A stretch of DNA of 64,000 nucleotides from a virus: IMG/VR virus record IMGVR_UViG_3300021964_000013; one strand, 5' to 3'. A program made the position numbers and the translations under genes. Each line of letters begins with the position of its first letter. Position 1 is the stretch's first letter. Shown here piece after piece: positions 29,216 to 53,796 of this stretch. The notes beneath the pieces were generated by a model. The model had not been told where the DNA came from, searched no databases, and saw only the letters and a list, made by a program, of their open reading frames with translations.

Positions 29216-29825
29216 TTCCAGATTGGATAGGCTTAATAGAATGAAGGTCGTATATCGTAAAGACCCTCACTCAGATAAACCAACAGAGGTTTACTGGTGG
29301 GGTAAGTTTTATGAATATGGTACACACCAATGCTTCGATCTATTTCGTAGTAAGGCTAAAATAACTACGTATAAGTCTTTAAAATGGCACAGCATCGTAC
29401 TTCGTTATCTTAATCAAGAGATGTCTGAAGATAATTTTAAGGATGTTTTATTTTACGTAGGTAATCCTTTAAATGATTTCATTACATTTGAGATAAGCGA
29501 GAATATTGTAAATGAGTTAATTACGGACTTACGTGGTTACGATTTAAGAATAGCACCAAAAAACAAATCAAGGAAAATTATATTTAATGACGGTGTCCCG
29601 CTTAGCATTAGTGAAAAGCTGAAAATCGTAGGTAGCTTAATCGGTAGAGGTAAACGCTTTACTGAAGAAGACATCTACGAGTCGATGCTATACATCCATG
29701 CTAACGGCGACAAAATTACGGTGAGAAAGATCGCGAGTACACTTGGTTGCTCAGATAGGACGATACATCGTAATATGAGTGATCAATTGAAAAATGAAAA
29801 AGATTTACTCAATGCGTCATTATGA
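29208..29825 (+). CDS. C-terminal HTH DNA-binding protein
   Basis: 'KITVRKIASTLGCSDRTIHRN'; start reassigned to ATG 29208. Confidence 0.7.
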   Translation: MSHSRLDRLNRMKVVYRKDPHSDKPTEVYWWGKFYEYGTHQCFDLFRSKAKITTYKSLKWHSIVLRYLNQEMSEDNFKDVLFYVGNPLNDFITFEISENIVNELITDLRGYDLRIAPKNKSRKIIFNDGVPLSISEKLKIVGSLIGRGKRFTEEDIYESMLYIHANGDKITVRKIASTLGCSDRTIHRNMSDQLKNEKDLLNASL

Positions 29826-30580
29826 AAAAATACAACCCGCGTACTTACTCCTCTTATAAAGAGAGTGTAAACGCAGCTAAAGCTAGGATAAGAAAAGAAA
29901 CACTAGCTAACTTAAACAGAGATGAAGTAATCACGATGTACCTACCTCTAGTCGAAAATCTCGCCAGAAAGTTCTCAACAAGCCAGCAAGCAAGCGGCGT
30001 GATGAGTCTAAATGATATGATACAAGAAGGTTCTATCGGCCTTATAATGTCATATGATACTATCAAGTGGGACAAGATTAAAGAAAGCCCAGATCCAGAA
30101 CGTACAATAAGATCTTTCTTTTCCAAAAGAATAAAAGGCGCGATTCGCAGAGCGATAGATAAAAACAGAGGTGATATACGTATACCAGAACATAAGCTAA
30201 ACGAGATTCGTAAAGACAACGGAAAAGACAAAAAGCTTATGCAGATGTTCTTTAACAGTATATTCTTGTCTATAGATGAGAAAGTAGAAAACGATGAAGA
30301 ATATGCACATCAAGTAATTGACACATCTAAGCCGTATACAATAAATAAGATAAACGACTACCTCATGGATCTCATGTCTAGAGTATTAGAAGAAAGAGAG
30401 TATGAGGTAATAAGGTTGTCTTACGGTTTAGACTGCGATAAGCATTCTGCAAAACAAATAGCTGAGATCGTCGGCATTAACGTTGATACCGCGCACGTAC
30501 GTGTGTCTCAGATTAAACGTAACGCACTGGAAAAATTAATGCAACGCGTAGATCGAAACATGTTATTGGAGTTCATGTAA
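29822..30580 (+). CDS. Divergent sigma-70 family factor
   Basis: YLPLVENLARKF, DMIQEG.IGL, IRIPEH and a region-4 'RVSQIK..AL.KL'. Confidence 0.85.
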   Translation: MKKYNPRTYSSYKESVNAAKARIRKETLANLNRDEVITMYLPLVENLARKFSTSQQASGVMSLNDMIQEGSIGLIMSYDTIKWDKIKESPDPERTIRSFFSKRIKGAIRRAIDKNRGDIRIPEHKLNEIRKDNGKDKKLMQMFFNSIFLSIDEKVENDEEYAHQVIDTSKPYTINKINDYLMDLMSRVLEEREYEVIRLSYGLDCDKHSAKQIAEIVGINVDTAHVRVSQIKRNALEKLMQRVDRNMLLEFM

Positions 30581-30593
30581 TTAAAAAACCAAA

Positions 30594-30667
30594 GCGCTTG
30601 TAGCTCAGCTGGATAGAGCATCTGCCTTCTAAGCAGACGGTCATAGGTTCGAATCCTATCAGGCGTA
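30594..30667 (+). tRNA. tRNA-Arg(TCT)
   Basis: Cloverleaf with acceptor GCGCTTG/CAGGCGT, anticodon arm TCTGC-CTTCTAA-GCAGA and GGTTCGAATCC T-loop; CCA is not encoded. Confidence 0.95.
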
Positions 30668-30683
30668 CTAAAATTAATAAATT

Positions 30684-31151
30684 ATGAAGTTAGAAGTTTT
30701 AAGATTTAGTAGTGAAAAAGACAGTACAAATGGGTTATTATTCGATGTCTCAGACGGGCGTTCATTCCTTTGTTACACCCTTGAAGACGAACACAGAGAC
30801 GAAAAAGTTATGGCTGAAACTAGAATCCCCGCAGGAACATACAGGATTACTCTCAGGACGACTGGAGGATTTCACGGAAGATATCTAAAAAAGTATGGCC
30901 AAGACTTTCACAAAGGAATGCTATGGGTACGCGATGTCCCTAATTTCGAGTATATTCTTATTCATACTGGTAATACTGATGAGCACACTGCTGGGTGTCT
31001 TATTGTTGGTGACAGTCAACAGGCCAATTTTGGCGAAAGCGATGGTTTTATTGGATCAAGCAATGCGGCTTATAAAAGAATATATCCTGCTATTGCTCAA
31101 GCACTTACGTCAGGTGAAGAAGTCGAAATAACATATATCGACTACGATTAA
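30684..31151 (+). CDS. DUF5675 family protein (possible cell-wall enzyme)
   Basis: CYTLE, TRIPAGTY and ILIHxGN...TxGCLIVG motifs. Confidence 0.75.
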   Translation: MKLEVLRFSSEKDSTNGLLFDVSDGRSFLCYTLEDEHRDEKVMAETRIPAGTYRITLRTTGGFHGRYLKKYGQDFHKGMLWVRDVPNFEYILIHTGNTDEHTAGCLIVGDSQQANFGESDGFIGSSNAAYKRIYPAIAQALTSGEEVEITYIDYD

Positions 31152-31205
31152 TTCTTCGAATTATTTTTGTATATTTATATTATAAAACAGTTAAATCAAA
31201 ATTCC

Positions 31206-31730
31206 ATGGGTAAATTACATGAGAAGTTATCTGCTATCCAGCAGGACTTTAAATCCAAAAAAAGCCGTTACAACAGTTTCGGAAAGTACAACTACAGAAG
31301 TGCTGAAGACATTCTTGAAGCACTAAAACCAGTCAATCTTGAATGGAATGTGTATTTCACGATTACAGAAGAGTTTATACCTGGTCAAGTACCTGTTATA
31401 GTATCTACCGCTACGATCTCTGATGGCGTAGATGAAATCTCAGCTAAAGCGGTTGTTGGTGTTGATCTACTACAAAAAGGTATGCAAACACCACAAGCAT
31501 TTGGCTCTGCAAGCTCTTACGGCAAAAAGTATGCATTGGGTAACTTACTACTCATTGATGACACCGCCGATGCAGATGCTACAAATAATCATAGCAAAAC
31601 AAAGCCTGAATTAAAAGGCGATGATCTAGAAAAAGCAAAAAGTTACATTAAGAATGGTGGTAGCGTAGCTGCTATCAAGTCTAAGTACAGCTTATCGAAA
31701 GAAGTAGAACAACAACTCGCAACACTCTAA
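31206..31730 (+). CDS. ERF family ssDNA-annealing protein
   Basis: YxYRSAEDILEALKP and Q..GSASSYxKKYALxxLL.IDD..DAD. Confidence 0.9.
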   Translation: MGKLHEKLSAIQQDFKSKKSRYNSFGKYNYRSAEDILEALKPVNLEWNVYFTITEEFIPGQVPVIVSTATISDGVDEISAKAVVGVDLLQKGMQTPQAFGSASSYGKKYALGNLLLIDDTADADATNNHSKTKPELKGDDLEKAKSYIKNGGSVAAIKSKYSLSKEVEQQLATL

Positions 31731-37549: not shown

Positions 37550-37593
37550 AAAAGTGGTATGTGCAGATTTTGCATGTACCACTTTTTATTTTT
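37550..37593. terminator. Hairpin/terminator where the early (+) and late (-) arms converge
   Basis: AAAAGTGGTA...TACCACTTTT stem followed by a T-tract. Confidence 0.6.
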
Positions 37594-38149
37594 CAGTGGC
37601 ATACTTAACACCCATTATGGTTCCAACTATACTAAACGAATTAGTTAGCAGTATACCAAACAGATTAGACCAAGTACTTTCTATTATCTTAGAATCATAA
37701 CCCTGGTACAAGACAAACATATATAACAAAGATGTTATAACACCTACGCCCACAATAACTCCTAATGCAAGCTTAACAATAATACCTACTAACTCAAACT
37801 GAGTTTTCTTTTGCATGACCTCTAAGTCATTTAGAGCCTCATCTCTTAAACTTTCAGCTGCTTTTTTAGCATCTTCAAGTTCTTCCATCTTATCCTGTAG
37901 ATCTGATAAGAGAGCTTTATTTAATACGTTAGCTTCTTCAAGCTCTTTGTTCTGAGCCTGTACCTGCTTAGTAATGTCTAAACGCTTACGTCTTTGAGCT
38001 AAGTCTTTTCTTTTACACTCTTCAATGTAGTCTTTAACTTCATCATCAGTAGTCTTAGCCAGCAGCTTAACAAAGTTTCCTTCTATGAAAACTTTCTTAG
38101 ACTTGGCTTTAAGTATAGCTTCCTTTACCGTGTCTTTAGAACTAATCAC
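37586..38149 (-). CDS. Coiled-coil protein with two C-terminal TM helices
   Basis: Long charged heptad region, then two hydrophobic helices. GTG start at 38149 overlaps the upstream stop (alternative start 38167). Confidence 0.75.
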   Translation of the reverse strand: MISSKDTVKEAILKAKSKKVFIEGNFVKLLAKTTDDEVKDYIEECKRKDLAQRRKRLDITKQVQAQNKELEEANVLNKALLSDLQDKMEELEDAKKAAESLRDEALNDLEVMQKKTQFELVGIIVKLALGVIVGVGVITSLLYMFVLYQGYDSKIIESTWSNLFGILLTNSFSIVGTIMGVKYATEK

Positions 38150-38312
38150 CGCAGCAGTGTATTTCACAACTATCCAAGTAGGTATTATCAGGATTACCGT
38201 TAGTTACATATCCTGTTTCATACTCTTTAGTATTACTATTAACTAAAAAACCAGCTAAACCTACAAGCAAGAAGAATATAATAGCAACCCTAAATTCTAT
38301 AATCAGTTTCAT
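38142..38312 (-). CDS. Exported or membrane-anchored micropeptide (56 aa; not in ORF track)
   Basis: MKLIIEFRVAIIFFLLVGLAGFLVNSNTKEYETGYVTNGNPDNTYLDSCEIHCCGD; TAATG overlap with the receiver gene. Confidence 0.7.
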   Translation of the reverse strand: MKLIIEFRVAIIFFLLVGLAGFLVNSNTKEYETGYVTNGNPDNTYLDSCEIHCCGD

Positions 38313-38749
38313 TATCTATATACCTTAAAAGAATTTGTTTTATTTACATAGCCTTCGTAATCCTTATGAAACTCCTCAAGTCTTGGTTCAATATCATCAG
38401 ACTTGATAATCCAGAACTGAGCCCCTACTTCTTTAGCTTTTTGTATTTCCTCTTCATCAGAGCTGCTAGATATAATGCCAATAACACAGCCGTTACCATA
38501 GTCCTGGTTGATCTTACGTATCATTTCAATGCCATCAAAGCTTGATCCAATGATATTAAGATCTACAAAAACACACTGTGGTCTTTCGTGATCTGGATCA
38601 TCTGGAAACCATGCTTTAAATTTTCTGTCAGCTTCGTCTGAGCTGTCTAATGACTCTATAGAGAGCGCTATATCTAACATGCTACAGGCATCTTCAAATA
38701 CCAGGTGAAATAGATTCTCATCATCTATTAGCATCAATGTGTCGATCAT
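38312..38749 (-). CDS. Single-domain response regulator (receiver)
   Basis: LIDD acidic pair, VFVDLNI phospho-Asp, ISSS and IIKS conserved Lys. Confidence 0.9.
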   Translation of the reverse strand: MIDTLMLIDDENLFHLVFEDACSMLDIALSIESLDSSDEADRKFKAWFPDDPDHERPQCVFVDLNIIGSSFDGIEMIRKINQDYGNGCVIGIISSSSDEEEIQKAKEVGAQFWIIKSDDIEPRLEEFHKDYEGYVNKTNSFKVYR

Positions 38750-39645
38750 ATCTTTATGTATACTTTTGTACCGTTATCTTGTTTCTCAGCAAACACACTG
38801 AAGCCGTGTTCTTTTAATATTTCAATAGATATATTAAGTCCAAGCCCTGTGCCACTTTCTTTTTGTCCTTCTTTTCTAGCATAAGGTTTACTAAGTTCAA
38901 TAAACTCTTCACCTCTTAACCCTCTACCATTATCCTCTACTACAATGTAAGAACCACCGTGGTAGCTTGCTTGTAGATATATTTTTATCCACTTAGTAGC
39001 AGAGTCGTTATATTTTAAACCGTTTCTAATAAAATTATCTATAGCAGTACAAAATAAAGCTTCATTAACATCCAGACCAATAGGTAAATCACCTGATAAT
39101 AAAACCTGATTTTTATAAGCCGTAAGCTTTAGATAGTCTTCTAGTATAAACTTTATATTACAGGTTTTTTTGTTTAACTGAGCATTCTCTTTAACTAGAT
39201 TAGTGAATTCATAGACACCAGCATAAACTTTTTGCGCGTGATACAAGCCATCTTCGATTAGCTTTAATGGAGAGGCTATTCTAAGCTCTTTAACGATGTC
39301 TTCGTTGAGTCTACGGTTCAAAGACTTGATACCTCTAGGTAAATAAGTATTGATACCGCTATGCATGTCATGTCTAATGATCTTAGCAGCGTGTTCTAAG
39401 TAAATGTTTTTCTTGCTAAGATCTTGTTTGATAGATTCTTTATTAGCTAGAAACTCTTTTACTACTAAAAAGAAAGGTGGCATAAAGGCAATAACCGATA
39501 GCCACTCAAAGTAATGTGTAAATGTAGAATGATGTATGTATTTAAAAACTACTAAAGTTTTAAACACAAAAAACGTAAGCATTATTACTGTAGAGCACAA
39601 CAAGCATATCCTAGAACGTATAGATATACCATCAAGTACGGACAT
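38746..39645 (-). CDS. Sensor histidine kinase (two TM helices)
   Basis: H-box RHDMHS, N-box NFIRNGLKY, G1 EDNGRG and G2 GTGLGL. Confidence 0.93.
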   Translation of the reverse strand: MSVLDGISIRSRICLLCSTVIMLTFFVFKTLVVFKYIHHSTFTHYFEWLSVIAFMPPFFLVVKEFLANKESIKQDLSKKNIYLEHAAKIIRHDMHSGINTYLPRGIKSLNRRLNEDIVKELRIASPLKLIEDGLYHAQKVYAGVYEFTNLVKENAQLNKKTCNIKFILEDYLKLTAYKNQVLLSGDLPIGLDVNEALFCTAIDNFIRNGLKYNDSATKWIKIYLQASYHGGSYIVVEDNGRGLRGEEFIELSKPYARKEGQKESGTGLGLNISIEILKEHGFSVFAEKQDNGTKVYIKI

Positions 39646-39800
39646 TATGCCTTATTTTTATTAAGATAATACCATCTCTGAAGAGTGTATCCTATAGATA
39701 TCACTAAAAGCAAAACTTTTAGCGCTGTTTCTAAATTTGACATGCTTATACCTAGTGCCGATAAGTTTATAACGTAAAGTTTAGCGTCTTGTGCATTCAC
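39645..39800 (-). CDS. Small membrane protein, holin candidate (51 aa)
   Basis: GTG start; hydrophobic helices and a basic C-tail; lies at the end of the structural operon. Confidence 0.5.
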   Translation of the reverse strand: MNAQDAKLYVINLSALGISMSNLETALKVLLLVISIGYTLQRWYYLNKNKA

Positions 39801-39804
39801 TGTT

Positions 39805-42800
39805 TTATCTTTTTCTAGATCTTGATCTACTTCTAGATCTCGATCTTGTTCTTGATTTAGTTTCTTTTGTATCAACACCTATCTGGTAATCAGGCCAGCC
39901 TAGGAACATTAATATCTGCTCATATGTTTTAAACTCACCTTCAAGATCTACAGAGTTAAGTATATTTTCATACTTCTGCATAAGCCTGTCTAGTGGCACA
40001 TTCGATGCTACCGATGTACCAACAGCCATAGCTTTTAAGAAGTTTGTGTCACTAAGCATTTCTAAAGTACCCAAGTTTTCTTTAGATTTTTGTAAGTAAT
40101 AACCAACACTCTTAATCTTGTTCAGCTTCGAACCAATAGATGGCGCTATATTAGCTGCTTCAAACGCTAGCATTTCAAAGTCAGGGTTAGGTCTGCCAGA
40201 TCTCTCTACAAACTCAACGCCTACATTTTTAATTACAGACATAATGTGACCTCTAATACCAGCACCGCGTAAAAATGAATCAAGCATACCATTAACTAGC
40301 TTGAACTCATCAGATTTAACCAATCTCTCTTCGTCATCGTCAGAAAAACCAATAAGTGTGCCTAATAAAGCGCTCTGTAAAGACACGAACAAAGCGTGTT
40401 GCGCCATACCGTAGTAAGCTATTCTAGACATTGAAACAGCAGCACTACCTCTTTTGTTCTTTAAGTTACTAAGCTCTTTCTTGATTATCCTGTCATACTG
40501 GGACTGAGTGTTAGCAAACGTCAATAGAAGTCTACCACCAAGGCTAGCTTGCTGAGCGCTAATTCTGTCAGGTCTAGACGACTGTTGTGATTCTTCTGTT
40601 TTATTTCTAAAATCAATAAACGCTCTTGCTTCAGCTTCTTCTTGTGTTAAACCTTGCTTTAAATACTCGTTAACATAGTTTCTGTAGTAAGGAGCACCAC
40701 CCATTACAATAGCTAAGCTATCCGCGATTTGTGTTGGCATAAAGCCTTTTGATAGTAACCAACCTACGGCCGCTTTAAACTTGTTTGTAGCATTTTTAGT
40801 TGCATCAACGAGTTCAGCTTCATTGATGTCGATTTTAAGACCCTCACGACGCTCTCTCATGTAGTTGGAGTTGACCAATGTCATTACATCAGACCAGAAC
40901 TGCTTTTGATTAGCGTACGCTGTGCCTGCTTTCAGCACGTTGTTAGGACCAGCGGCTTCAATATAGTTTGTAAACGAGATTAACTGCAATACAGCTGATC
41001 TAGTGTTAGCAAACATAACAACACCAACAGAACCATTTAACCAGTTCATGATGTTATTAGTAAACTGTGAGTCACCTGTTTCTAACCTGTTTCTACCCGT
41101 TTTCATTCTGGTGATTATGTTATCAAGAGACTTGATATAATCCTCACCAAATGCTGCTCTCATTTTGTTTTTATTCTTCTCGTTAAAGATAAAATCAACG
41201 TTTCTATTCCACTCTTCTAAGTATTTCTTTCTACTGTTCTTTTTCAAAGAGTCGATGATGTCACCTATAATACCACCAGAGTTCCAGTTTTTACCAGGTT
41301 CTACGTGACCGTGAAGATCAGTAATTTTCATTATCTCAATAGCGGCTTCTCTAGCCATACCATCTTTAACGACAAATGCTTGAGCTTGCTTTATTTCGTT
41401 TTCAGATATACCAGATATGTCATAACCTTTTCTACTCCATATGTATATTCTGATAGCGTTTTCAACACTCATACCAGGGAAAGCATCAGCTTTTAACTGC
41501 TTAAACAAGGGCTTAAACGTCTTCTTGATATCACGGTACTGCCTGATCATTCTAACTCTTTCAGCTGAGTAGTTGTTCACACCTTCATAGTAAGGCTCTA
41601 ACAAGTACTCTTCAAAGAAAGATATATGCTTTTGTGATTGATCACCTTTACCAACGAGATAGTTTTCTATAAGACCTCTGTAATCGTCGTGTGACGGTGG
41701 TACAAAGAATACATTTTTATTCTTATCTCTACCCAGTTGTTTCGATGCTACCTCAGAGAATTCTGTTTTAGCGTTTAAACCAGTAACATCTTCAAGTATA
41801 CTGTTAAACTCAGCATCTAGATCAGCAGCAAGCCTATTCAACCTTTCTTCCTCTTCTGCTTTAGCTATCTTTTCGGGATCTTGGCTGATAGTCCCTGTCT
41901 CTTCTATTTCCTCCTTTAGATTCTCTAAGAATTTCTTTACCTCTTGTTCCTTGTCTTTTAGAGATTTTTTATCTTGGTTAGACATGTCATCTTTAGAAAA
42001 ATTACCAAGATTATCTATTAAGTTCTGTATGTTTCTACCAACACTTCTGTTGTAGTCTAAAGAAACTAAAGCAGAGTGATCTATAGTTACTGCGTCTCCG
42101 TTTTCTTTGTAAATCTCAATGTTATTAGAACCTTGTTTACCTACCGGTACTCTAGATATTCTAGACAAGAAGGTAGGCTCTACGTTGTTTCTAAAATGAG
42201 GCATAACAACACCTTGTTTAGCCAAGAGTTTTTTAGCGTACGCTTTAGAGACTTGTACGGTTACGAAGTCATCTAGTATATCTATAGACGAGTTGTCTTT
42301 TCTAGGGTTTGTTACAACGTTGGCTAAATAACCAGATAAATACTTAGTTGGTATAGAATACATCAACGACTTAGGTGTTGATTTTTCAAGTACCATGTTT
42401 ACCCCAAACCTAGAAGCTTTACCTATAATAGGGTTTTTAGCTTCAAATACTGTATCGAATATAAAAGCAACTTCTTCTCTAGTTAAATTACCATTAGCAT
42501 AAAGTGCTTTTACTTTATAGAAGCTGTCTTTTAGTTTGTTTTTTAAAGTCAAAGGATCTAAGCTCACACTTTCGTTAAGAACACTTAACACGTCGTTATC
42601 AAAAACCTTTTCAAGAACGTTGACTTTAGCTTCGTTAGATATAGTGTTTTCACTGACGTTTAGCAAGCTCTTATGTCCTTCGTTTAAAACAGTGTTTTGA
42701 GCTATGTTAAACAAGTTATCAGCAAGAGAATCAGTGAACTCTGCTTCAACAGCTTTATGTGTTCTTAATCTAACAGTATCGATGTTTCTAGCGATATTAG

Positions 42801-45800
42801 CAAAGTCTAAAGCTAATTGTCTAGAAAGAACAACAGCGCTAGCCTCGTTCAACCATGGGTATTCTTTAGCAAAAGTATTTACAAGGTTGTTTGTCAATGC
42901 TATTCTAAGCTGACCCAATTGCTTATCACGCATCATGTTAGGCATGAGCTTGTAAGGAGCAATGCCATCTTTAAATGCTTTAAGTAAAGGATCTGGGTTT
43001 TGCATGATTAGCTCAGCCATACGTAAACCACCCATTCCAGCGTCTAAAGCGTTAGCACTAAACTTCATTAATGGGTCACGTTCAATTAAGTATGCTACCC
43101 TACCTATAACTTGGTTTTCTTCAACCACATCAGCGTTTTTCTCAATCATGCGCTCGTACATGTCGATGACTCTACCCTCAACAGGGTTGCCTTCTAAATC
43201 GTAGAACTGCTGGTTAGGGTTTTGCATAACTTCAAGAGTAGCATCGAGACCAAGGTCTATAGACATAGCTTCAGCTAAAACTCTTTTATGCTCATGTGGC
43301 ATGTTTCTACTTCTACCGACACGTGTTGGGTCTAAGTAGTTTAACCACTCTTCTTTTGTTGGGTAACGTCTTTGTACTTTGTTTACACCTGAGTAAGCGT
43401 CTCTAATGCCTAACATCCTAGACTCTTCAGCTGTGTAGCGTATTACATTGCCCTTAGCGTCTTTTTGGAACTCATATAAAACTCCGTTTAATGCAGGGAA
43501 TTTTCTAAGTGTGTTAAGGCTTAATTCTTCTTGAATCCAACCTTGGTTCTTAGAAGCCCACTCAATAAACTTAGCTGATCGTGTTGGGAACTTTTCAAGC
43601 ATGGTCTTGTATATAAGACCCTTGTATGCTTCAAACAAGTACGACCTAAACAAGCTTGGTTTCCATTTTTTAGTAGACATCAAATCAGGAGACAAGCTCA
43701 GCGTTCTAGTAACGACGCCCCTGATCTTGTTCATCTCTTGTGGTTCTAAACCTAACTTTCTTCTAATTCTACTGAACTCACCTAGTGAAGCTGGTTTATC
43801 AATAGCTTCTTCTATACTTTGCTCGTCACTTACAGATGGACCACCACCAGCGAGATCATCAACGTTAGTATTGAAGGTTTCACCTAGGTATTTGTTTTTT
43901 ATAGAAGCAGCTCTTAAAGCAAAGTACTTGTTGATATAAGCAGCTAATGGCACTCCTTTATCAGGGTTGTAACTCATTACTATACCGACCAATCCCTCTA
44001 CATCCTGTATAGCCGCGTCTTCTATTAAGTCTTTATCGAGTTGCCACCCAGGTAACGTGTCCCAGTTACCACGTATGGCTATTTTACGAAACATAGGTCT
44101 ATACATTTCACCTATTTCGTATACCGCAGCTACACCTTGCTCATCCCATAATCTCTGAACCTCAGCGCTCATTTCTTGCTGAGCTTTAGTAGGGCCTCTT
44201 TTTTTATCTTCAAACTCGTTTGCGGAGTCCATGTCTTCAGCAGCTAGCCAACCCTTAGAGTTTTTATCTACTTGAAGTAAAACACCTTTGCCACCGTACT
44301 CAGCAAACTGTCTCTGTGCTTTAGTTGACTTTCCTTTTACAATAGAATTATTGTAGTCCCTGACAAAGTTAAACACATCTTTACCGGTGTTAAACTCAAT
44401 GTTCTTGAGACCCAAGTCCTGCATTATTCTTCTTATAAAGTCTCCTATTTTCTCAAAGAAACTCTGGTCGTAAGTAACTCTTCCAGTTAACAAAGAATCA
44501 GATAGTACAGTGATAAACTCTTCTAAGTTTCTAGGATCAAAAGTTACGTCAGACATAGAAGCTAGCTTGTTAAACTGTTCTATGTTTTTGTTTGCTTTTT
44601 TAAATAACTCTTCTGCAGTGTACTTTTTGCCTAGTAAAGTATATGTTTGGTAAACTCTCATCCTAGACCTCCAGTTGTCTAGGTCTTTTATTTTTCCAGA
44701 ATCTTCTAGTTCTAGCAAATAATTGTTTAAAGCACCTACTGTTTGTTTTAAAGCGTCTGTATTGATCTTACTTTTACCATCTTTTAGTGCCGTAAAAGTA
44801 TTGTGCAAAACAGCATGTAAGACCTCATGGCTACCAGTTGTAACGTTTCCAGAAGCTATAGAGCCTTGCGCGTTGACAATGATTTTACCTTTAGTTGTAA
44901 ATACACCTGGTTTTCTTTTTAACTCGCCTTCAACGTAGTCTAGTTCTTCTTTAGTCGGGTTGTTTATACCTCTATCTTTTAAAACCTCAACAGCGTATTG
45001 TCTAGTGTTTTCAGCAACAACAACATTATCACCAACAATTTCTAGATCAGCAAAAGCTTTTACCGCGTTGTTCAGGTTAGCATTGAACTCTTCCATAGAG
45101 ACTAGTTCAAAGTTCGCGTCAACAACTTGAGATTTTAAAGTGTTTGATTTTTTAACTAAATCGCTTTTGTTGTGGTTTAAATCGATGTTCTTTATTTCAG
45201 CGGCGTGTTGCTCTTCGGTTATAGAACCCTCTTTCAACTGAGTGTTTAACACATCGATTTGCTGCTTTCTTATAGACTCTAGGTCTTTTACTTTTTTACC
45301 ATCCTCAGAGCTTTGGAAATCAGATAGCTTTTTTTCAGCGTCGTTCTTATTGTACTCAGCATCCATTAACTTCGACTTCTGATCGCTACTCATTGACCTG
45401 TCAAAGTTCTGAGAGCTCATCATGAAATTATCGAGCTGCTGCTTTTTTTCCTCGTATGCTTCTTTTGTTATAACACCGTCTTGAAGGTCCTTGTTTAATC
45501 TAGCAATATTGTGTTGATGAAACTCTCTTAGACCTTTTATATCTAGTTTTCCAGCAGCTACAGCATAAGCATTTGAAGCTTCAGTTATCGTAGATGACGT
45601 TACATTACCGCTAAATGGTAATAACGAACCCATGATAAACCCAGCTCCACCACCTTGTATGTAGTTTTCTCTAATATATTCACCTACTGTTACGTCACTA
45701 GCAGCTTGTTGAAACACCTCAGTCATCATCTCGTCAAAACCACCTCTTACAGATGTTAATCCGTTTTTAGACTGTTGCTTTAACCAGTGTTTAAATTGTC

Positions 45801-47364
45801 CTTTGACTAGAGACGCAGCGTTTTGCCTAGCGCCTTGTTTCAGAACGCTCATACCTAAAGACTTACCTAAGACAGATGATGCACCAACGTACTCAGCAGC
45901 ACCACTAACGAAACCAACGCCCATAGCACTATTAAATATTTCGTTATTCATATCCTCTTCAACAACCCTCATTAATTGGTCAATGCTAGGCTGGAGTGTA
46001 TTGTATTTTACTTTAGCTTGTTTTTGTACTTGTCTTAAGTAGTTATCACCGGCCATTTGAGCTGCTGGTAATGTACCGAAGGTTAATATTGCAGACAACA
46101 TCTGTGGAAGCTGTTCAGAGACAATTGTTTTAAGCGTCTGTAAGGACTTACCAGACTCTAATACATCTCTTACATCAGCGTGGCCAAAATGAGACTCTAG
46201 AGCTTGTCTTTCGAATATTAGTTCTAGGTCTTGCTTTTGGTTTTCGCGGCCATCTTCAATGATTTTTTTAGCTTGCTCTTGAGCTTCACCCCAAGTGCCT
46301 TTTTTAGTATAGCCTGATGCTGCCGGGTGGAAACCATCTTGTTTTGGCACCATGAAAGCACCTTTGTTGTTAAAGTAACCTACAGTGTTGTCATCCCAGC
46401 CTTGCTCTTCGGCTAACTTCTGGTTTACCTGGTACTGTCTTTCTACTTGTAAGTAATCAGCTGTGCCTAAACCACCGGCCTTGACAGAAGTACCCATACC
46501 ATGTATGCTTTTATACACACCTCTAAAAAGTGTTGGCATGTTTTGGTAACCTAGCTTCATAGCGCCTCTGATATGCGCTTTATTTACTAAATCAATAATA
46601 GTATTGTCAACTACATAGTTGTCGTAATCAGCTTTATGGCTATCACCAATAAGCTCTTGGTATGTAGATATACGTTTCTGTATGTCTGGATCAGCAAAAA
46701 TCGTCTGATTTATAAGCTTAGAGTATTCTCTTTGCGCTTTTTCAAGCTCTTCTTGAGAAATGTCCTCTATCTCCATGTCTTTAAACGGAGCCATTATGCT
46801 TGAAAGACCCTCTTGAAGATCAGTCTGCTTGTTATCTAACGTTTGAGATATCATGCCTTGTAACTTCTCATCCTTCGTTACAACAGCATTAAGCGTCTCG
46901 TTGTTAAAGTCGTCTATTATAACTTCGTCACCGTAGGGCAAAACAGGACCATAAGGTGTGTTTTTTAATTTACGAGAAGCTTTTCTACCCTTAAACTCTT
47001 CTTGAGTTCGCCTCTTCATATCTTGATAATCAGAGTCGTCGGGTATGAGTATAGGTTTTCTAGAAACACCCATATACTTTTCTTCTTCTTGCGGTACTTT
47101 GCCTAAAGTAGAAGGGTCGAATATAGGGTTACCAAATTCATCAGTCTCTTGTGATTCCGAAGAACCAGCTTCCGAAGACAAATCCGTAGCGGGCTTTTGA
47201 TTTGGGCTTTCTGTGGTCTCGCCCTCTACCACGCCCTGTTGCTTTCCCTCGTCTAAAGGTTTTAAACCAGCGTTAGCAACGTAGTCTTCAATAGATAAAC
47301 CGCTTTCATCAGCGGCTTTTTGAACCTCTTCAAGAGAATACTGTTGTCCTTCGTATTCAAACAT
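39805..47364 (-). CDS. Giant internal virion/ejection polyprotein (2519 aa)
   Basis: Position after the tail and ejection genes; HEVLH zincin motif; sigma region-2-like segment; C-terminal RS repeat. Confidence 0.75.
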   Translation of the reverse strand: MFEYEGQQYSLEEVQKAADESGLSIEDYVANAGLKPLDEGKQQGVVEGETTESPNQKPATDLSSEAGSSESQETDEFGNPIFDPSTLGKVPQEEEKYMGVSRKPILIPDDSDYQDMKRRTQEEFKGRKASRKLKNTPYGPVLPYGDEVIIDDFNNETLNAVVTKDEKLQGMISQTLDNKQTDLQEGLSSIMAPFKDMEIEDISQEELEKAQREYSKLINQTIFADPDIQKRISTYQELIGDSHKADYDNYVVDNTIIDLVNKAHIRGAMKLGYQNMPTLFRGVYKSIHGMGTSVKAGGLGTADYLQVERQYQVNQKLAEEQGWDDNTVGYFNNKGAFMVPKQDGFHPAASGYTKKGTWGEAQEQAKKIIEDGRENQKQDLELIFERQALESHFGHADVRDVLESGKSLQTLKTIVSEQLPQMLSAILTFGTLPAAQMAGDNYLRQVQKQAKVKYNTLQPSIDQLMRVVEEDMNNEIFNSAMGVGFVSGAAEYVGASSVLGKSLGMSVLKQGARQNAASLVKGQFKHWLKQQSKNGLTSVRGGFDEMMTEVFQQAASDVTVGEYIRENYIQGGGAGFIMGSLLPFSGNVTSSTITEASNAYAVAAGKLDIKGLREFHQHNIARLNKDLQDGVITKEAYEEKKQQLDNFMMSSQNFDRSMSSDQKSKLMDAEYNKNDAEKKLSDFQSSEDGKKVKDLESIRKQQIDVLNTQLKEGSITEEQHAAEIKNIDLNHNKSDLVKKSNTLKSQVVDANFELVSMEEFNANLNNAVKAFADLEIVGDNVVVAENTRQYAVEVLKDRGINNPTKEELDYVEGELKRKPGVFTTKGKIIVNAQGSIASGNVTTGSHEVLHAVLHNTFTALKDGKSKINTDALKQTVGALNNYLLELEDSGKIKDLDNWRSRMRVYQTYTLLGKKYTAEELFKKANKNIEQFNKLASMSDVTFDPRNLEEFITVLSDSLLTGRVTYDQSFFEKIGDFIRRIMQDLGLKNIEFNTGKDVFNFVRDYNNSIVKGKSTKAQRQFAEYGGKGVLLQVDKNSKGWLAAEDMDSANEFEDKKRGPTKAQQEMSAEVQRLWDEQGVAAVYEIGEMYRPMFRKIAIRGNWDTLPGWQLDKDLIEDAAIQDVEGLVGIVMSYNPDKGVPLAAYINKYFALRAASIKNKYLGETFNTNVDDLAGGGPSVSDEQSIEEAIDKPASLGEFSRIRRKLGLEPQEMNKIRGVVTRTLSLSPDLMSTKKWKPSLFRSYLFEAYKGLIYKTMLEKFPTRSAKFIEWASKNQGWIQEELSLNTLRKFPALNGVLYEFQKDAKGNVIRYTAEESRMLGIRDAYSGVNKVQRRYPTKEEWLNYLDPTRVGRSRNMPHEHKRVLAEAMSIDLGLDATLEVMQNPNQQFYDLEGNPVEGRVIDMYERMIEKNADVVEENQVIGRVAYLIERDPLMKFSANALDAGMGGLRMAELIMQNPDPLLKAFKDGIAPYKLMPNMMRDKQLGQLRIALTNNLVNTFAKEYPWLNEASAVVLSRQLALDFANIARNIDTVRLRTHKAVEAEFTDSLADNLFNIAQNTVLNEGHKSLLNVSENTISNEAKVNVLEKVFDNDVLSVLNESVSLDPLTLKNKLKDSFYKVKALYANGNLTREEVAFIFDTVFEAKNPIIGKASRFGVNMVLEKSTPKSLMYSIPTKYLSGYLANVVTNPRKDNSSIDILDDFVTVQVSKAYAKKLLAKQGVVMPHFRNNVEPTFLSRISRVPVGKQGSNNIEIYKENGDAVTIDHSALVSLDYNRSVGRNIQNLIDNLGNFSKDDMSNQDKKSLKDKEQEVKKFLENLKEEIEETGTISQDPEKIAKAEEEERLNRLAADLDAEFNSILEDVTGLNAKTEFSEVASKQLGRDKNKNVFFVPPSHDDYRGLIENYLVGKGDQSQKHISFFEEYLLEPYYEGVNNYSAERVRMIRQYRDIKKTFKPLFKQLKADAFPGMSVENAIRIYIWSRKGYDISGISENEIKQAQAFVVKDGMAREAAIEIMKITDLHGHVEPGKNWNSGGIIGDIIDSLKKNSRKKYLEEWNRNVDFIFNEKNKNKMRAAFGEDYIKSLDNIITRMKTGRNRLETGDSQFTNNIMNWLNGSVGVVMFANTRSAVLQLISFTNYIEAAGPNNVLKAGTAYANQKQFWSDVMTLVNSNYMRERREGLKIDINEAELVDATKNATNKFKAAVGWLLSKGFMPTQIADSLAIVMGGAPYYRNYVNEYLKQGLTQEEAEARAFIDFRNKTEESQQSSRPDRISAQQASLGGRLLLTFANTQSQYDRIIKKELSNLKNKRGSAAVSMSRIAYYGMAQHALFVSLQSALLGTLIGFSDDDEERLVKSDEFKLVNGMLDSFLRGAGIRGHIMSVIKNVGVEFVERSGRPNPDFEMLAFEAANIAPSIGSKLNKIKSVGYYLQKSKENLGTLEMLSDTNFLKAMAVGTSVASNVPLDRLMQKYENILNSVDLEGEFKTYEQILMFLGWPDYQIGVDTKETKSRTRSRSRSRSRSRKR

Positions 47365-49515: not shown

Positions 49516-52500
49516 TTAGCTACTGACAAATATTTCAGAGTTAACTGCGAATAGTTCTTTATTAGTTCCCGTTGTGTTAGTCATTTTAACCGATGCGTAG
49601 TAGCCAACTAATCCAGAAGTGTTGATCTGACTGTTTTTAGCAAAGAACACGAAATCACCATCTTCTATGCTAGTACCACCATTATCATAGTCTATACCTT
49701 CCGTGTTGTTCACGTCTACATAGTACTGTCCACCTGTAGCTCCAGTATCAGCACACGTACCTATCTTGTAAATATTACCATTTGATTTCTGGTAAAAAAC
49801 AATATCATCAGCCGCTTCTTGTAAAGATACATTTATCTCGTTATTAAATATTAGCCTCATTGTAGGTGTAACTGTACCTACTATATCTAAGGTATCTATA
49901 CCTTGAACTGAAAACTCACTTGTATCTAAAGAACCAGACTGGGTGTTGTTGTCCCAAGCATCTTGTCTACCTCTAATATAATTATAATATATTCCCTCTT
50001 TGTTTTTCCAAGTAACTACTTCACCGTCTTGCTGATCAGTATCTACAGTAGCCGTCCAGCCAGAATCACCCTCGTAAGAAAGCGTCTTAAAGTTCTTGAT
50101 TCTAGAAGCCTCATCGTTATGTAGTAGAGTTACTGATGTGTCGTACTGAATACCGTAGTAGTTAGCTCTAGTATTGTTAGTGTGAGCGTATATATTACCG
50201 TTTTTAAAAGTATAGTACACTGAGTTAAGCGAAACACCTGTCTCAGGTACAAAGCTTAATCTAGTCGACCAACCATCTACGCTTTCTTTAAAAGCTAATG
50301 TCTCGCCGTTAACAGTTACATTGTAAGACGACATGTCTTCGTTAAAAGAACCGTGTATCGCGCCAGAGTGTGCTGTTAGAGCGTCTGTAATAAAGTCTGA
50401 CATACCTTTAGATGCTACATCAGTGATACCGTCTCTAGACAGTCTTATAACAGCTCTTCTAGATTTGTCTACGAAGTATGCTCTAAAACCAAAGCTTACA
50501 AAAGACTCTGGATTCTTAGATATACCATACTCACCAACATAAGGAGTCGATTGACCCAATACCCTATTTGTAGATACAAGGTTAGCATTACCATCCGCAT
50601 TGTAAAGCGCATCTTTATTAGCGAGTACTCTAAATACTTTATCCTCACAAAGAACAATAAGATCAGTGTCTCTAGCGTGAAGTTTTTGTATTGTACCATA
50701 TATTGGGTTGAGGTCTTTTGTTATTTTCTCCGCGGTGTTAAACTGGTTAAGGTTGTTCACTCCAGATGTGGAGTTGAATATACCACTGTAAATCATACCG
50801 TGGCCTCTTCTCTCTTGAGAGTAAACCTCTTCAATGGTACTAGAAGCTTTAACACCTTTACCCATTGTCTTGGCGTTGAAGTCGTCTCTAATTCTATTAG
50901 ATTCAACACCGTTGCCAAAAGAGTACACATTGAAGTAATCTAACACTTGCTCTGTTTGCAACTGAGCGATTGGTATTGCTTCTGTAGCTTCGAAGAATAT
51001 ATCTAGATCAATAGCCTCGTTTGGTTCAACTTCAAAAACAGTAGGGTTAGGAGAACTAAGTGTAATAGTGTTCTCATCAAAAACTATAGGTAATAACCTT
51101 TTTCTTTTAGATATCCTTACAGCATCAGCTGTAAAGTCCTCATCAGTAAAAGGTGTAGTCATTTTTATGTTCCAGTAGTAACCTGTTTCATCGTCAGTGT
51201 CTCCAGAAGACAATGGTTGCCTGTCGTAACTACCTTTTGTAACAGTGTCTACAATATATAGTGAGCTCCAAGAGTTATCAGTGCTATTTTGGAACTGAAT
51301 CACATCACCACTGCTAATAGCCGCATCGAATGCATTACCGTTAGTGCCAAAGTCTATATTATTGCTGTCGTATGGTGCAAAGTAGAAACCAAACAAGTCA
51401 GAACCAATTGTTGGCTGACCATGTGAGTCGATGCTTGGTTGAGCGTTAGCGTGTTCTTCCCAAGCAAACATATCTAGAGTAGCAGGTGGCGTGTCGGTAG
51501 CGTCTGGATCATCAGACAGTGTGTTCTGTATATAAGGAACTCTCTTTAAACCGTCTTGCTCATAATCACTAGGGTCATTTGTAAAGTTGTATATAACACT
51601 TTCTTCAAATAGAACATCTCTGTTGATCTTAACAAAGAATCTTCCCTGGTATTCTTTTCTAGCTTCTTTTTCTTTTTTGTATACCTCTACAGTGAAATTA
51701 TCAGAGCTAGAAAGACTTTGTATAAAACCAACATCAGTTAGTTTTTCTTTTGTTGTTATCTCGTAGCAATCATGTGAATCACCAGTATAACCACCTCTTT
51801 CTATCTCGTAAAACTGGCTAACATTGGTACCTCTTCTAAATCTTATGTAAGAATCGTAATCAAAGGACTCAAAGAACTCTGGATTTTCAGCTGATGTTGG
51901 TCCTTCAAACTTGAACGTCTTTAAGTTGTTAGCGACTGGAGTATCAGAACCTTTAACCACTTCTGAGCCCGTGTTGTAGACTCTTTTTATAGAAACAGCA
52001 TCTGGTACTTCATTCTGTATATCTAAGATCTTGTATCTAGAAGGCGATATAACAGGCTCATCTGAGTTGTGTTTTTTCTTAAGTGTAAGGAAGTCTCCCT
52101 CCTGCACTTTATTACGCTCAGCACTTGGCATAGACAACCAAACAGTACCGTCTGAATCATCAGCATAGTACCTATCAAGTACGATGTTGTAGTATTCATT
52201 AGATATGTCCTTAACGTAGTATTTAAAATGCGTTGCCCAAGAAGGAGCGTCTTGACCAGACTCAGCTTTTATTCTATTAACCTTGCTTGATTTGTCTATG
52301 TCTACTTTTATAGTAGAGTAGTCATTCGTAAAAACAGGTGTTTCTCTACCGTTAGTATCTAAATAAACAATACCTATTTGGTAGTTTCTCAAAGATTTTA
52401 CACTTGACTCAGGTGTTTTAACACTTGTTATAGAGTTAGACTGTAAGCTAACTGTAATATCAGCTTCATCAGTGATGTTGTAACCCTGAACGTAGTTACC

Positions 52501-53796
52501 ATACACAAGCCTATTACCTATAACCTCTTGAGATTTAGCTTTTAACGGAACGTTGTCATATGCTCTTAGTAACTGGCTAGATTCCACTAGGTTACTAATC
52601 AGCTCTGATGTTATAGAGTAATTTGTTCTTGTAGTAGGTATAGACTCAACCTTGTACACGTTGGGTGATGAAGAGTCTTTATATAAAATATCTATATACT
52701 CTACGTCGGCTGGTGGTGTTTCAAACCCGCTTATGGTCAATCGCCTTAGGTTGTTTATCATGCCGGTATTATACGCGTTCATAGATATATACCTAAAATC
52801 ACCGGGTACAAAAACAGCATTAGTCCAAGGTGAAAAACCAGAGACTTCGCCATCAACATATCTCCATCTGTAAGCAAATCTAGGAAAAGACAATTCAAAC
52901 ATTGGTCTTTCTTCTTCAAGAATACACTTCCATGTGTACTCTATAGATTTTATATCAGACGATATAGACTGTATAGTACCAGTAACAAACCTTAGTAAAG
53001 CACCAGTTATAGAAACAACTTCTATTCTAACCTGGTACTCATCTTCGTAGTTGTTATCGTTTATCTCACTAGCTGTCAGTACGATGATATCACCAGCGTT
53101 CCAGTTAGGAGAATCACTTACAGTAAAAGATATAGAGCTACCTACTTCTCTAGGCACTTTGCTGCCGCCATAAAGCTCTGTAAAGTCTTGTTGAGTGGTT
53201 ACGTAGTTCAAGCCAGAACCAACACCAGATCTAGTAGTTGAAGAAGCCACATAGTGTGGCCTTTCGTTTGGTTTTTTCTTTATAACAGTAATATCTGAAG
53301 CTATAAAGTCTCTACCATATACAGTCGTTTGGTCTTGACCAGTTTGGTTTGTACCGGACTTAAATCTTGATATTAGTATTTTTCTAGGCTCATTAAGATC
53401 ATCTGTCCACATGAGCATACCATCGAACACGTTTACGCCAGTGATTAAGTTGCCGATGCTGAAGTTTAATACACTGTTGTAATCCACTATAACAAAAGAT
53501 ACAACCTCGTTTGACTCATTGTACTCTAAAACAAAGTCACCTTCGTCTGCGGTTACAAACCAATATATCTTATTATTCTGTGTGTCTTTTACATTACCAA
53601 TGCAGGTAGCGTTTGTAAAGTTAAACGAAGACTTAGCTGTGTTGCCAAGTACACTTTCTATTGCTCCTACATCAGAACCCTCAGAGTTACTAACCTGTAC
53701 GTTCAGTGCATCTCTGTACTGACCGTTAGGCACAAGCCTCTCATCAAGGTCTTTATTCATTTTACCTGATGTGAAAACGCGCTTTAATTCTGGCAT
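49516..53796 (-). CDS. Tail nozzle/stabilisation protein
   Basis: N-terminal 'GKMNKDLDERL.PNGQYRDALN', beta-rich sequence, 'YGISKNPES'. Confidence 0.75.
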   Translation of the reverse strand: MPELKRVFTSGKMNKDLDERLVPNGQYRDALNVQVSNSEGSDVGAIESVLGNTAKSSFNFTNATCIGNVKDTQNNKIYWFVTADEGDFVLEYNESNEVVSFVIVDYNSVLNFSIGNLITGVNVFDGMLMWTDDLNEPRKILISRFKSGTNQTGQDQTTVYGRDFIASDITVIKKKPNERPHYVASSTTRSGVGSGLNYVTTQQDFTELYGGSKVPREVGSSISFTVSDSPNWNAGDIIVLTASEINDNNYEDEYQVRIEVVSITGALLRFVTGTIQSISSDIKSIEYTWKCILEEERPMFELSFPRFAYRWRYVDGEVSGFSPWTNAVFVPGDFRYISMNAYNTGMINNLRRLTISGFETPPADVEYIDILYKDSSSPNVYKVESIPTTRTNYSITSELISNLVESSQLLRAYDNVPLKAKSQEVIGNRLVYGNYVQGYNITDEADITVSLQSNSITSVKTPESSVKSLRNYQIGIVYLDTNGRETPVFTNDYSTIKVDIDKSSKVNRIKAESGQDAPSWATHFKYYVKDISNEYYNIVLDRYYADDSDGTVWLSMPSAERNKVQEGDFLTLKKKHNSDEPVISPSRYKILDIQNEVPDAVSIKRVYNTGSEVVKGSDTPVANNLKTFKFEGPTSAENPEFFESFDYDSYIRFRRGTNVSQFYEIERGGYTGDSHDCYEITTKEKLTDVGFIQSLSSSDNFTVEVYKKEKEARKEYQGRFFVKINRDVLFEESVIYNFTNDPSDYEQDGLKRVPYIQNTLSDDPDATDTPPATLDMFAWEEHANAQPSIDSHGQPTIGSDLFGFYFAPYDSNNIDFGTNGNAFDAAISSGDVIQFQNSTDNSWSSLYIVDTVTKGSYDRQPLSSGDTDDETGYYWNIKMTTPFTDEDFTADAVRISKRKRLLPIVFDENTITLSSPNPTVFEVEPNEAIDLDIFFEATEAIPIAQLQTEQVLDYFNVYSFGNGVESNRIRDDFNAKTMGKGVKASSTIEEVYSQERRGHGMIYSGIFNSTSGVNNLNQFNTAEKITKDLNPIYGTIQKLHARDTDLIVLCEDKVFRVLANKDALYNADGNANLVSTNRVLGQSTPYVGEYGISKNPESFVSFGFRAYFVDKSRRAVIRLSRDGITDVASKGMSDFITDALTAHSGAIHGSFNEDMSSYNVTVNGETLAFKESVDGWSTRLSFVPETGVSLNSVYYTFKNGNIYAHTNNTRANYYGIQYDTSVTLLHNDEASRIKNFKTLSYEGDSGWTATVDTDQQDGEVVTWKNKEGIYYNYIRGRQDAWDNNTQSGSLDTSEFSVQGIDTLDIVGTVTPTMRLIFNNEINVSLQEAADDIVFYQKSNGNIYKIGTCADTGATGGQYYVDVNNTEGIDYDNGGTSIEDGDFVFFAKNSQINTSGLVGYYASVKMTNTTGTNKELFAVNSEIFVSS

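Follow-up and report, generated by a model that had tools for sequence, protein, structure and literature searches.

We analysed a 64,000-nucleotide stretch of viral DNA (IMG/VR virus record IMGVR_UViG_3300021964_000013; hereafter the window) whose minus-strand structural arm ends in five overlapping genes. They encode a 51-amino-acid (aa) holin-like protein, a sensor histidine kinase, a stand-alone receiver, a 56-aa peptide, and a 187-aa coiled-coil protein with two C-terminal transmembrane (TM) helices. Three of them (kinase, receiver and membrane protein) constitute a conserved cassette found almost exclusively in viruses and repeatedly beside lysis genes. We suggest that the cassette is probably a phosphorelay that gates a membrane effector, fitting the timing of lysis to the state of the host.

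A conserved three-gene cassette

We compared the window with 80 viral loci from a kinase scan (cohort 1) and 80 loci from a receiver-alignment scan (second cohort). The order kinase, receiver, membrane protein is the same in all 77 cohort-1 loci that extend far enough, and a TM hairpin follows the receiver in 77 of 79 second-cohort loci, many of them from jumbo phages; the genes flanking the trio differ widely between loci. The conserved unit is these three genes. The original prediction had read all five as one lysis-timing or communication module, and the search for co-occurrence and gene order upheld the trio but not the other two members: the peptide occurs in 7 of 160 loci, and the 51-aa gene adjoins the cassette in only 2 of 80 other loci.

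The receiver matches at least 548 IMG/VR stretches, versus 5 among 185,579 GTDB genomes, and 3 of these 5 have a membrane partner of the viral type. In a quick tree (few columns, midpoint root), from which we claim no direction of transfer, the cellular receiver copies cluster together, nested within the viral sequences. Among the carriers are podovirus-like genomes as small as 60 kb and jumbo phages as large as 480 kb, and wherever a host can be inferred it belongs to the Bacteroidota. Contigs of metagenome-assembled genomes (MAGs) from three phyla (L173, L175, L176) carry a viral-type cassette and may be mis-binned phage DNA. We found no published description of the cassette in the literature searched, which lay mostly outside subscription journals; a survey of jumbo phages describes a different receiver, cREC, which is never linked to kinases (PMC7824862).

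All five genes lie on the minus strand with overlapping starts and stops, as first described, and every open reading frame (ORF) was confirmed. Their junctions read TAATG, ATGA, TAATG and then an 8-nucleotide overlap, and the holin-like/kinase junction is identical in contigs from three independent samples. Purifying selection acts on all five, with ratios of nonsynonymous to synonymous substitution rates (dN/dS) of 0.02-0.035 for the receiver, 0.04-0.08 for the membrane protein, 0.2-0.37 for the peptide and ~0.2 for the holin-like gene; synonymous sites in the kinase are saturated. Promoter scans of the window stayed at chance level. One RNA run held a 239-nucleotide contig identical to the 5' part of the kinase gene, a small share that may be DNA carry-over and from which we do not claim transcription.

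A complete two-component pair with apparently exchangeable sensor heads

Motif conservation in both proteins bears out the earlier claim of a complete phage two-component pair. The kinase matches HATPase_c (E 1.7e-12), the residues of its H, N, G1 and G2 boxes (H92, D93, N204, N208, D238, G240, G242, G265, G267, G269) are invariant in 53 homologues, and its predicted structure matches the HK853 and CpxA kinase cores over ~240 columns. Pfam HisKA had no match in the kinase; the dimerisation and histidine phosphotransfer domain (DHp) was recognised through motif and fold. The receiver matches Response_reg (E 1.6e-8), and its acidic pocket, phospho-acceptor aspartate, Ser/Thr switch and lysine (D9, D10, D63, S94, K116) are invariant in 58 homologues. 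It has no output domain, and at 87% mean column identity its alignment is far more conserved than those of its partners. Phosphotransfer from H92 to D63 is predicted, as follows from the intact motifs.

The kinase consists of two TM helices (residues 9-33 and 41 onward in the model) joined by an outer loop of ~7 residues, the DHp bearing H92, and a catalytic ATP-binding domain. With two TM helices, an outer loop shorter than ~25 residues and no extra sensor domain, it has the traits by which intramembrane-sensing kinases are defined. The window copy lacks PAS domains; one to three are inserted in many relatives, and PAS-bearing kinases occur in 42 of 72 second-cohort loci. For the PAS domains tested, which came from a single relative kinase and a single hairpin fusion (described below), the best matches are 3ewk (MmoS), Aer and NifL, whose PAS domains are flavin adenine dinucleotide redox sensors. 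In the region of the outer loop, 38 of the 53 kinases have two to four cysteines and 13 have three histidines, never both, a pattern that hints at a metal or thiol site. Judging from the alignments, Cys-type and His-type sensor heads seem to have been exchanged through recombination.

Directly before the kinase, 76 of 78 cohort-1 loci (e.g., L007:5813-6001) and none in the second cohort have a gene of 62-66 aa with two TM helices and an invariant cysteine. This gene is YgaP-like: with E values as high as 1 allowed, 22 of 45 members matched PF11127 (best 2e-5), and most of these matches fell short of the family cut-off. Relative to loci L002 and L003 the window lacks exactly this gene, and by this comparison its lineage has lost a sixth, YgaP-like member.

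Several further observations concern these genes. The kinases at L081:2668-3570 and L005:6001-6900 are 79% identical overall and 53% in the TM region. Two paralogous kinases, one of them PAS-bearing, lie upstream of a single receiver at L203, L207, L222, L236, L247 and L251, and genome G006 encodes the receiver twice. In 62 of 80 cohort-1 loci a conserved micro-ORF of 35-40 aa (cluster c4; e.g., L004:5706-5816) immediately precedes the YgaP-like gene; it has no family match, is absent from the window and is apparently fused to the peptide in L152.

A membrane protein built from two modules

The longest ORF of the membrane protein starts at 38167; its close homologues (~188 aa) begin at a GTG corresponding to 38149, most likely the true start. 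A small helical N-domain is followed by a long coiled coil and two C-terminal TM helices; in the model, two short helices precede a long one that continues as TM1, which a short loop connects to TM2 (predicted local distance difference test score 80). TM2 is nearly invariant and bears a continuous stripe of small and polar residues (S158, N162, G165, T169, S173, G176, G180). Two TM helices, a short basic C-tail and a polar face are traits of class II holins and pinholins that the 187-aa protein shares. Its family comprises 5054 clusters at 90% identity, all without annotation. Fold searches returned generic helical hairpins only, an Atlas feature search returned solely viral clusters without a family, and a scan of GTDB with a single membrane-protein query gave no match. 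SLATT is not among the 25 commonest Pfam matches listed for 78 members.

Searches with longer forms and with profiles divide the protein into two modules, the N-domain with coiled coil and the coiled-coil end with hairpin. The latter also occurs behind one PAS domain, two PAS domains or a GAF domain. The 80 viral loci with PAS-PAS-hairpin fusions lack receiver, kinase and N-domain alike, and 53 of 57 have an endolysin of one of several enzyme types within 2 kb, many of them within 60 bp; one GAF-hairpin fusion, too, sits inside a lysis cluster. The N-domain and coiled coil, for their part, also form the front of soluble histidine kinases, seen in metagenome contigs and one Bacteroidetes MAG, whose genes come immediately after those of a homologous kinase (48%) and receiver (63%). 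Because this cellular operon places an N-domain kinase behind the same kinase-receiver pair, the N-domain appears to travel with the receiver whatever the output. Thus the N-domain seems to follow the receiver and the hairpin the lysis genes, an association that is our main basis for a path from kinase through receiver, N-domain and coiled coil to hairpin. Together with the fixed gene order, it makes the coupled membrane protein the likely output of the relay, as originally proposed. A complex prediction for the receiver with residues 1-115 of the membrane protein gave a median of 0.23 against a mark of 0.32, and we use it neither for nor against binding.

Cellular operons of kinase, receiver and N-domain kinase are found at L171:601-4755 and L174:4100-7481; a YceI gene lies upstream in the L171 operon and an AraC-type gene downstream in L170. 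We found no description in the literature of such a kinase cascade through a lone receiver. Profile matches to odd partners (FecCD, SNF2, glycosyltransferase-like and TsaD-like) look like assembly chimeras and were set aside.

The cassette fills a lysis slot

The link to lysis comes from the closest relatives and from a wider survey. In the nearest record, 96% identical over the 2519-aa gene that borders the five-gene block, the start of an M15 endolysin (E 4e-12) occupies the slot of the cassette, and in L260 an Amidase_2 gene does so, again without the cassette. The cassette is optional and fills a lysis slot, since these two close relatives carry an endolysin there instead. Of the 96 cassette loci with full flanks in the two cohorts, 51 have an endolysin within 2 kb; five unrelated types are involved (amidase, GH19, M15, DUF5675 and cluster c10), and the fraction of clusters with a nearby endolysin is 0.51, 0.47 and 0.33 at 90, 75 and 65% identity. 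With the same profiles, the control gene MazG in relatives of this phage had an endolysin nearby in 0 of 55 cases. No cassette lies within 2.5 kb of MazG in 71 such relatives, most of which are not syntenic there, so that we do not use this figure as a frequency. Four jumbo genomes (290-430 kb) each have a single GH19 gene, at distances of 1.0, 2.1, 2.1 and 6.2 kb from the receiver gene; three of the four were chosen with the adjacency known and one was not, and a fifth genome has no GH19 gene.

The 51-aa gene has its own tie to lysis. Although it has no Pfam or PHROG match, 47 of its 56 viral relatives directly precede an M15 endolysin, and it is plausibly a holin by this context. Its holin-like character thus stood up, but its proposed coupling to the kinase is not general: none of the 56 relatives has a kinase or receiver in its flanks. 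Other holin candidates accompany the cassette elsewhere, a holin-4-like gene being present in 43 of 80 cohort-1 loci. An 83-aa TM gene without a family (cluster c6; L025:249-500) lies near endolysins in 40 of 80 cohort-1 and 68 of 80 PAS-fusion loci and is a candidate for an unannotated holin.

A proposed phosphorelay that may time lysis

Histidine kinases transfer phosphate from His to Asp, lone receivers act by protein contact, and holins are triggered by loss of membrane potential. We propose that kinase, receiver and membrane protein would work as a self-contained phosphorelay, expressed late in infection. Its kinase may read the membrane state of the host or its redox and energy status, and would phosphorylate the receiver at D63; the receiver would then bind the N-domain of the membrane protein, as domain shuffling suggests. 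Through the coiled coil the change would be relayed to the TM hairpin, which might oligomerise or open and so shift the time of lysis. A holin-like or depolarising hairpin could in this way set off whichever holin the phage has. The cassette itself is accessory, and lysis does not need it.

We lean towards a trigger rather than a brake, because the cassette moves among phages with unrelated holins (the 51-aa, holin-4-like and 83-aa candidates differ from one another) and TM2 is invariant, which would be unexpected of a holin-specific antiholin. The His and Cys sets of the kinases and the Cys-bearing YgaP-like partner point to membrane or redox state as the input, in preference to a diffusible peptide, and this is the weakest step of the proposal. 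More broadly, there is perhaps an even chance that these proteins represent a widespread new class of sensor-gated lysis proteins, in which one TM hairpin takes an exchangeable input (PAS, tandem PAS, GAF or a kinase-fed receiver-binding domain) so that lytic aquatic phages lyse early or late according to host redox or energy state, with the N-domain as a new receiver-binding signalling domain.

Several points weigh against a role in lysis timing. About half of the cassette loci have no recognised endolysin within 2 kb, and at 65% clustering only 0.33 have one; the window itself yielded a single endolysin candidate, DUF5675, encoded on the opposite strand at a distance of 6.4 kb. The endolysin profiles derive from cohort 1, and the DUF5675 and cluster c10 endolysins are assigned by inference only. 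The PAS-fusion loci are interrelated, collapsing to 16 clusters at 90% and 6 at 85%. None of the holin families in Pfam, PHROGs or NCBIfam and none of the solved structures matches the hairpin, and INPHARED contains no isolate with the receiver or membrane protein. Unrelated accessory genes also gather where late operons end, and the evidence is genomic throughout.

These points bear on a different role for a real relay, in which the membrane protein serves envelope conflict, such as superinfection exclusion or the killing of doubly infected cells, and lies near lysis genes as both are late membrane functions. The topology and the modular evidence would fit equally, and in addition to the loci without a nearby endolysin, the usual presence of separate holin candidates speaks for it. 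We nevertheless think it unlikely: the PAS fusions adjoin endolysins of several types, often closely, redox-type PAS inputs are better suited to gauging the condition of the host than to detecting another phage, and the membrane protein had no PADLOC match when searched as a known defence effector.

It is slightly less likely still that the receiver targets a host protein, in a motility, envelope or cell-cycle circuit, and reprograms the host with the membrane protein as scaffold or anchor. The far higher conservation of the receiver relative to its partners would agree with this, as would the cellular version in a Bacteroidota MAG. In the loci examined, however, the N-domain occurs only behind this receiver family and is absent where PAS replaces the relay; and the near-absence of the receiver family from GTDB gives no sign of a common partner of this type in hosts.

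We regard as distinctly improbable that the cassette is a sporadic host-derived insertion that came to rest where an operon ends and plays no part in lysis. Its absence from the two close relatives and its low G+C content (32-37% versus 38-45% for the core genes checked) are what such an insertion would leave. Against it stand the excess of viral over GTDB matches and the viral-type partners of most of the latter, strong purifying selection, the grouping of the cellular copies inside the viral diversity (with the limits of that tree, in which direction is not proven), and an adjacency to endolysins far above the control; an unlinked host insertion, named beforehand as a refuting finding, is not what the data favour.

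The 56-aa peptide

The hidden 56-aa ORF of the original prediction is a real gene, under purifying selection and of exported type. It does end in SCEIHCCGD as reported, but this ending is one allele only: just the final CGD and, upstream, YETGY and GNPDN are fixed among cassette-linked copies. The peptide occurs in 7 of 80 cohort-1 loci and 0 of 80 in the second cohort; its gene either separates those of receiver and membrane protein or lies ahead of the kinase gene. Among 18 viral peptide loci, 9 lie beside the cassette and 9 have no cassette gene in the available DNA, which for 4 of the latter extends a full 3 kb downstream. A lipobox-like cysteine is present in most homologues (lipoboxes were read by eye), and the window copy has a plain hydrophobic segment. 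An Atlas feature search with the peptide gave nothing.

The proposed co-variation of peptide and kinase loop failed when checked. Loci L009, without a peptide, and L086, with one, have kinases that are 100% identical; the His-rich kinase loop occurs with several peptide tails or with none, and the peptide also accompanies a Cys-type kinase. In a 20.9-kb contig of the same phage, ~99% identical on the kinase side, 165 peptide bases are replaced by 162 others, and in two other runs loose ends at the peptide site encode another known allele. Identical kinases with and without the peptide, together with this allele swap, therefore argue against a ligand-receptor pair. Neither the five genes nor their common neighbours include a processing or export gene or a DNA-binding regulator, and the five genes had no match to the TPR/RRNPP receptors of arbitrium (the remaining window is partly annotated). 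The peptide is thus an accessory, usually lipoprotein-like gene outside the core. That it is an exported signal read by the kinase, in quorum sensing of the agr or com kind as first suggested, has only the slimmest chance and is largely refuted by the genomics: it is a real, selected and exported-type gene found beside the cassette at half of its viral loci, but it is rare among cassettes and swapped between near-identical strains, most homologues look lipid-anchored and not diffusible, and the kinase offers an outer loop of only ~7 residues.

Setting of the cassette in the window

The window holds most of a podovirus-like genome with converging arms (Table 1) and its DNA was found in estuary and seawater samples. 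The host is likely flavobacterial, because the candidate major capsid protein shares 44-52% identity with proteins from Flavobacterium elemo, Maribacter Panino and Cellulophaga phages. The five-gene block is the extreme end of the minus-strand structural arm, and the hairpin behind it is likely the terminator between the converging early and late arms. In contrast to other phages, DUF5675 is here an early-arm gene, flanked by those of a sigma-70-like factor and an ERF recombinase (29822-31730). The 2519-aa protein has an HExxH motif near residue 845 and an Arg/Ser repeat tail, shared with relatives, and no family match. Farther along, a 1426-aa protein (49516-53796) has a crassvirus muzzle C-terminal domain (PF25729, E 7e-10).

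Table 1. Positions of the cassette and associated features in the 64,000-nucleotide window.
Feature	Position	Strand	Basis
DUF5675 gene, endolysin candidate	30684-31151	+	homologues directly upstream of cassette in other phages
17-bp hairpin and T-run directly after final stop	37550-37586	unassigned	likely terminator
Membrane effector candidate, 187 aa, core, no known family	37586-38149	-	homologues, model, domain shuffling
Accessory exported or membrane-anchored peptide, 56 aa, real gene, non-core	38142-38312	-	homologues, selection
Stand-alone receiver, 145 aa, core	38312-38749	-	Response_reg match, invariant catalytic set
Sensor histidine kinase, 299 aa, core	38746-39645	-	HATPase_c match, invariant boxes, model
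Holin-like gene, 51 aa, GTG start, lysis context, non-core	39645-39800	-	family precedes M15 endolysin
Last structural-arm gene, 2519 aa, marks lysis slot	39805-47364	-	synteny with two relatives

Comparison with known systems

Both burst size and what becomes of an infected cell depend on when lysis occurs, and Bacteroidota recycle algal carbon. To our knowledge, outside T4-type lysis inhibition the time of lysis is treated as fixed by the holin allele. If the proposed phosphorelay, or a PAS sensor, does act directly on a lysis membrane protein, lytic phages would make a regulated, host-state-dependent lysis decision without transcription, in a family as large as the cluster and locus counts above and with Bacteroidota as the inferable hosts.

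The pair resembles class I kinases with an HK853-type core and single-domain receivers of the CheY, DivK and Spo0F type in fold, catalytic residues and, by our proposal, output through protein contact, and differs from them in being almost only viral and in having a dedicated partner of N-domain, coiled coil and TM hairpin. The intramembrane-sensing kinases of the LiaS/LiaF and BceS type, which control transcription via DNA-binding regulators, likewise have two TM helices and a very short outer loop, and like the window copy no cytoplasmic sensor domain; relatives of the window kinase also share with them a small membrane gene upstream. That accessory is here YgaP-like with an invariant cysteine, and is missing in the window. 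LytSR is a bacterial two-component system that controls the holin-like CidA and LrgA according to membrane potential, and offers a parallel of two-component control over holin-like membrane proteins; it works through transcription, whereas the receiver described here has no DNA-binding domain and its control would be post-translational.

Among phages, the agr3 system of C. difficile phage phiCDHM1 combines AgrB and AgrD with no response regulator (PMC3901668). A phage-encoded histidine kinase beside a small peptide gene is common to both; the cassette described here has a cognate receiver and a membrane partner, no processing enzyme, and a dispensable peptide. The phiKZ lysis regulator gp143 is a cytoplasmic product that shifts holin timing by contacting the cytoplasmic domain of the holin (PMC12894885). 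It is similarly an extra lysis-cassette gene that shifts holin timing, and no sensor or phosphorelay is described there.

The relay would also work much as lysis inhibition does in T4, in which the holin T acts with the antiholins RI and RIII (PMC11413866, PMC8385771). None of the five genes matches families of the T, RI or RIII type. There, as proposed here, a phage-encoded signal path alters the time of lysis through membrane proteins. T4 does so by direct binding of antiholins upon superinfection, without kinase, receiver or phosphorylation, whereas the inputs to this cassette look like the redox or membrane state of the host.

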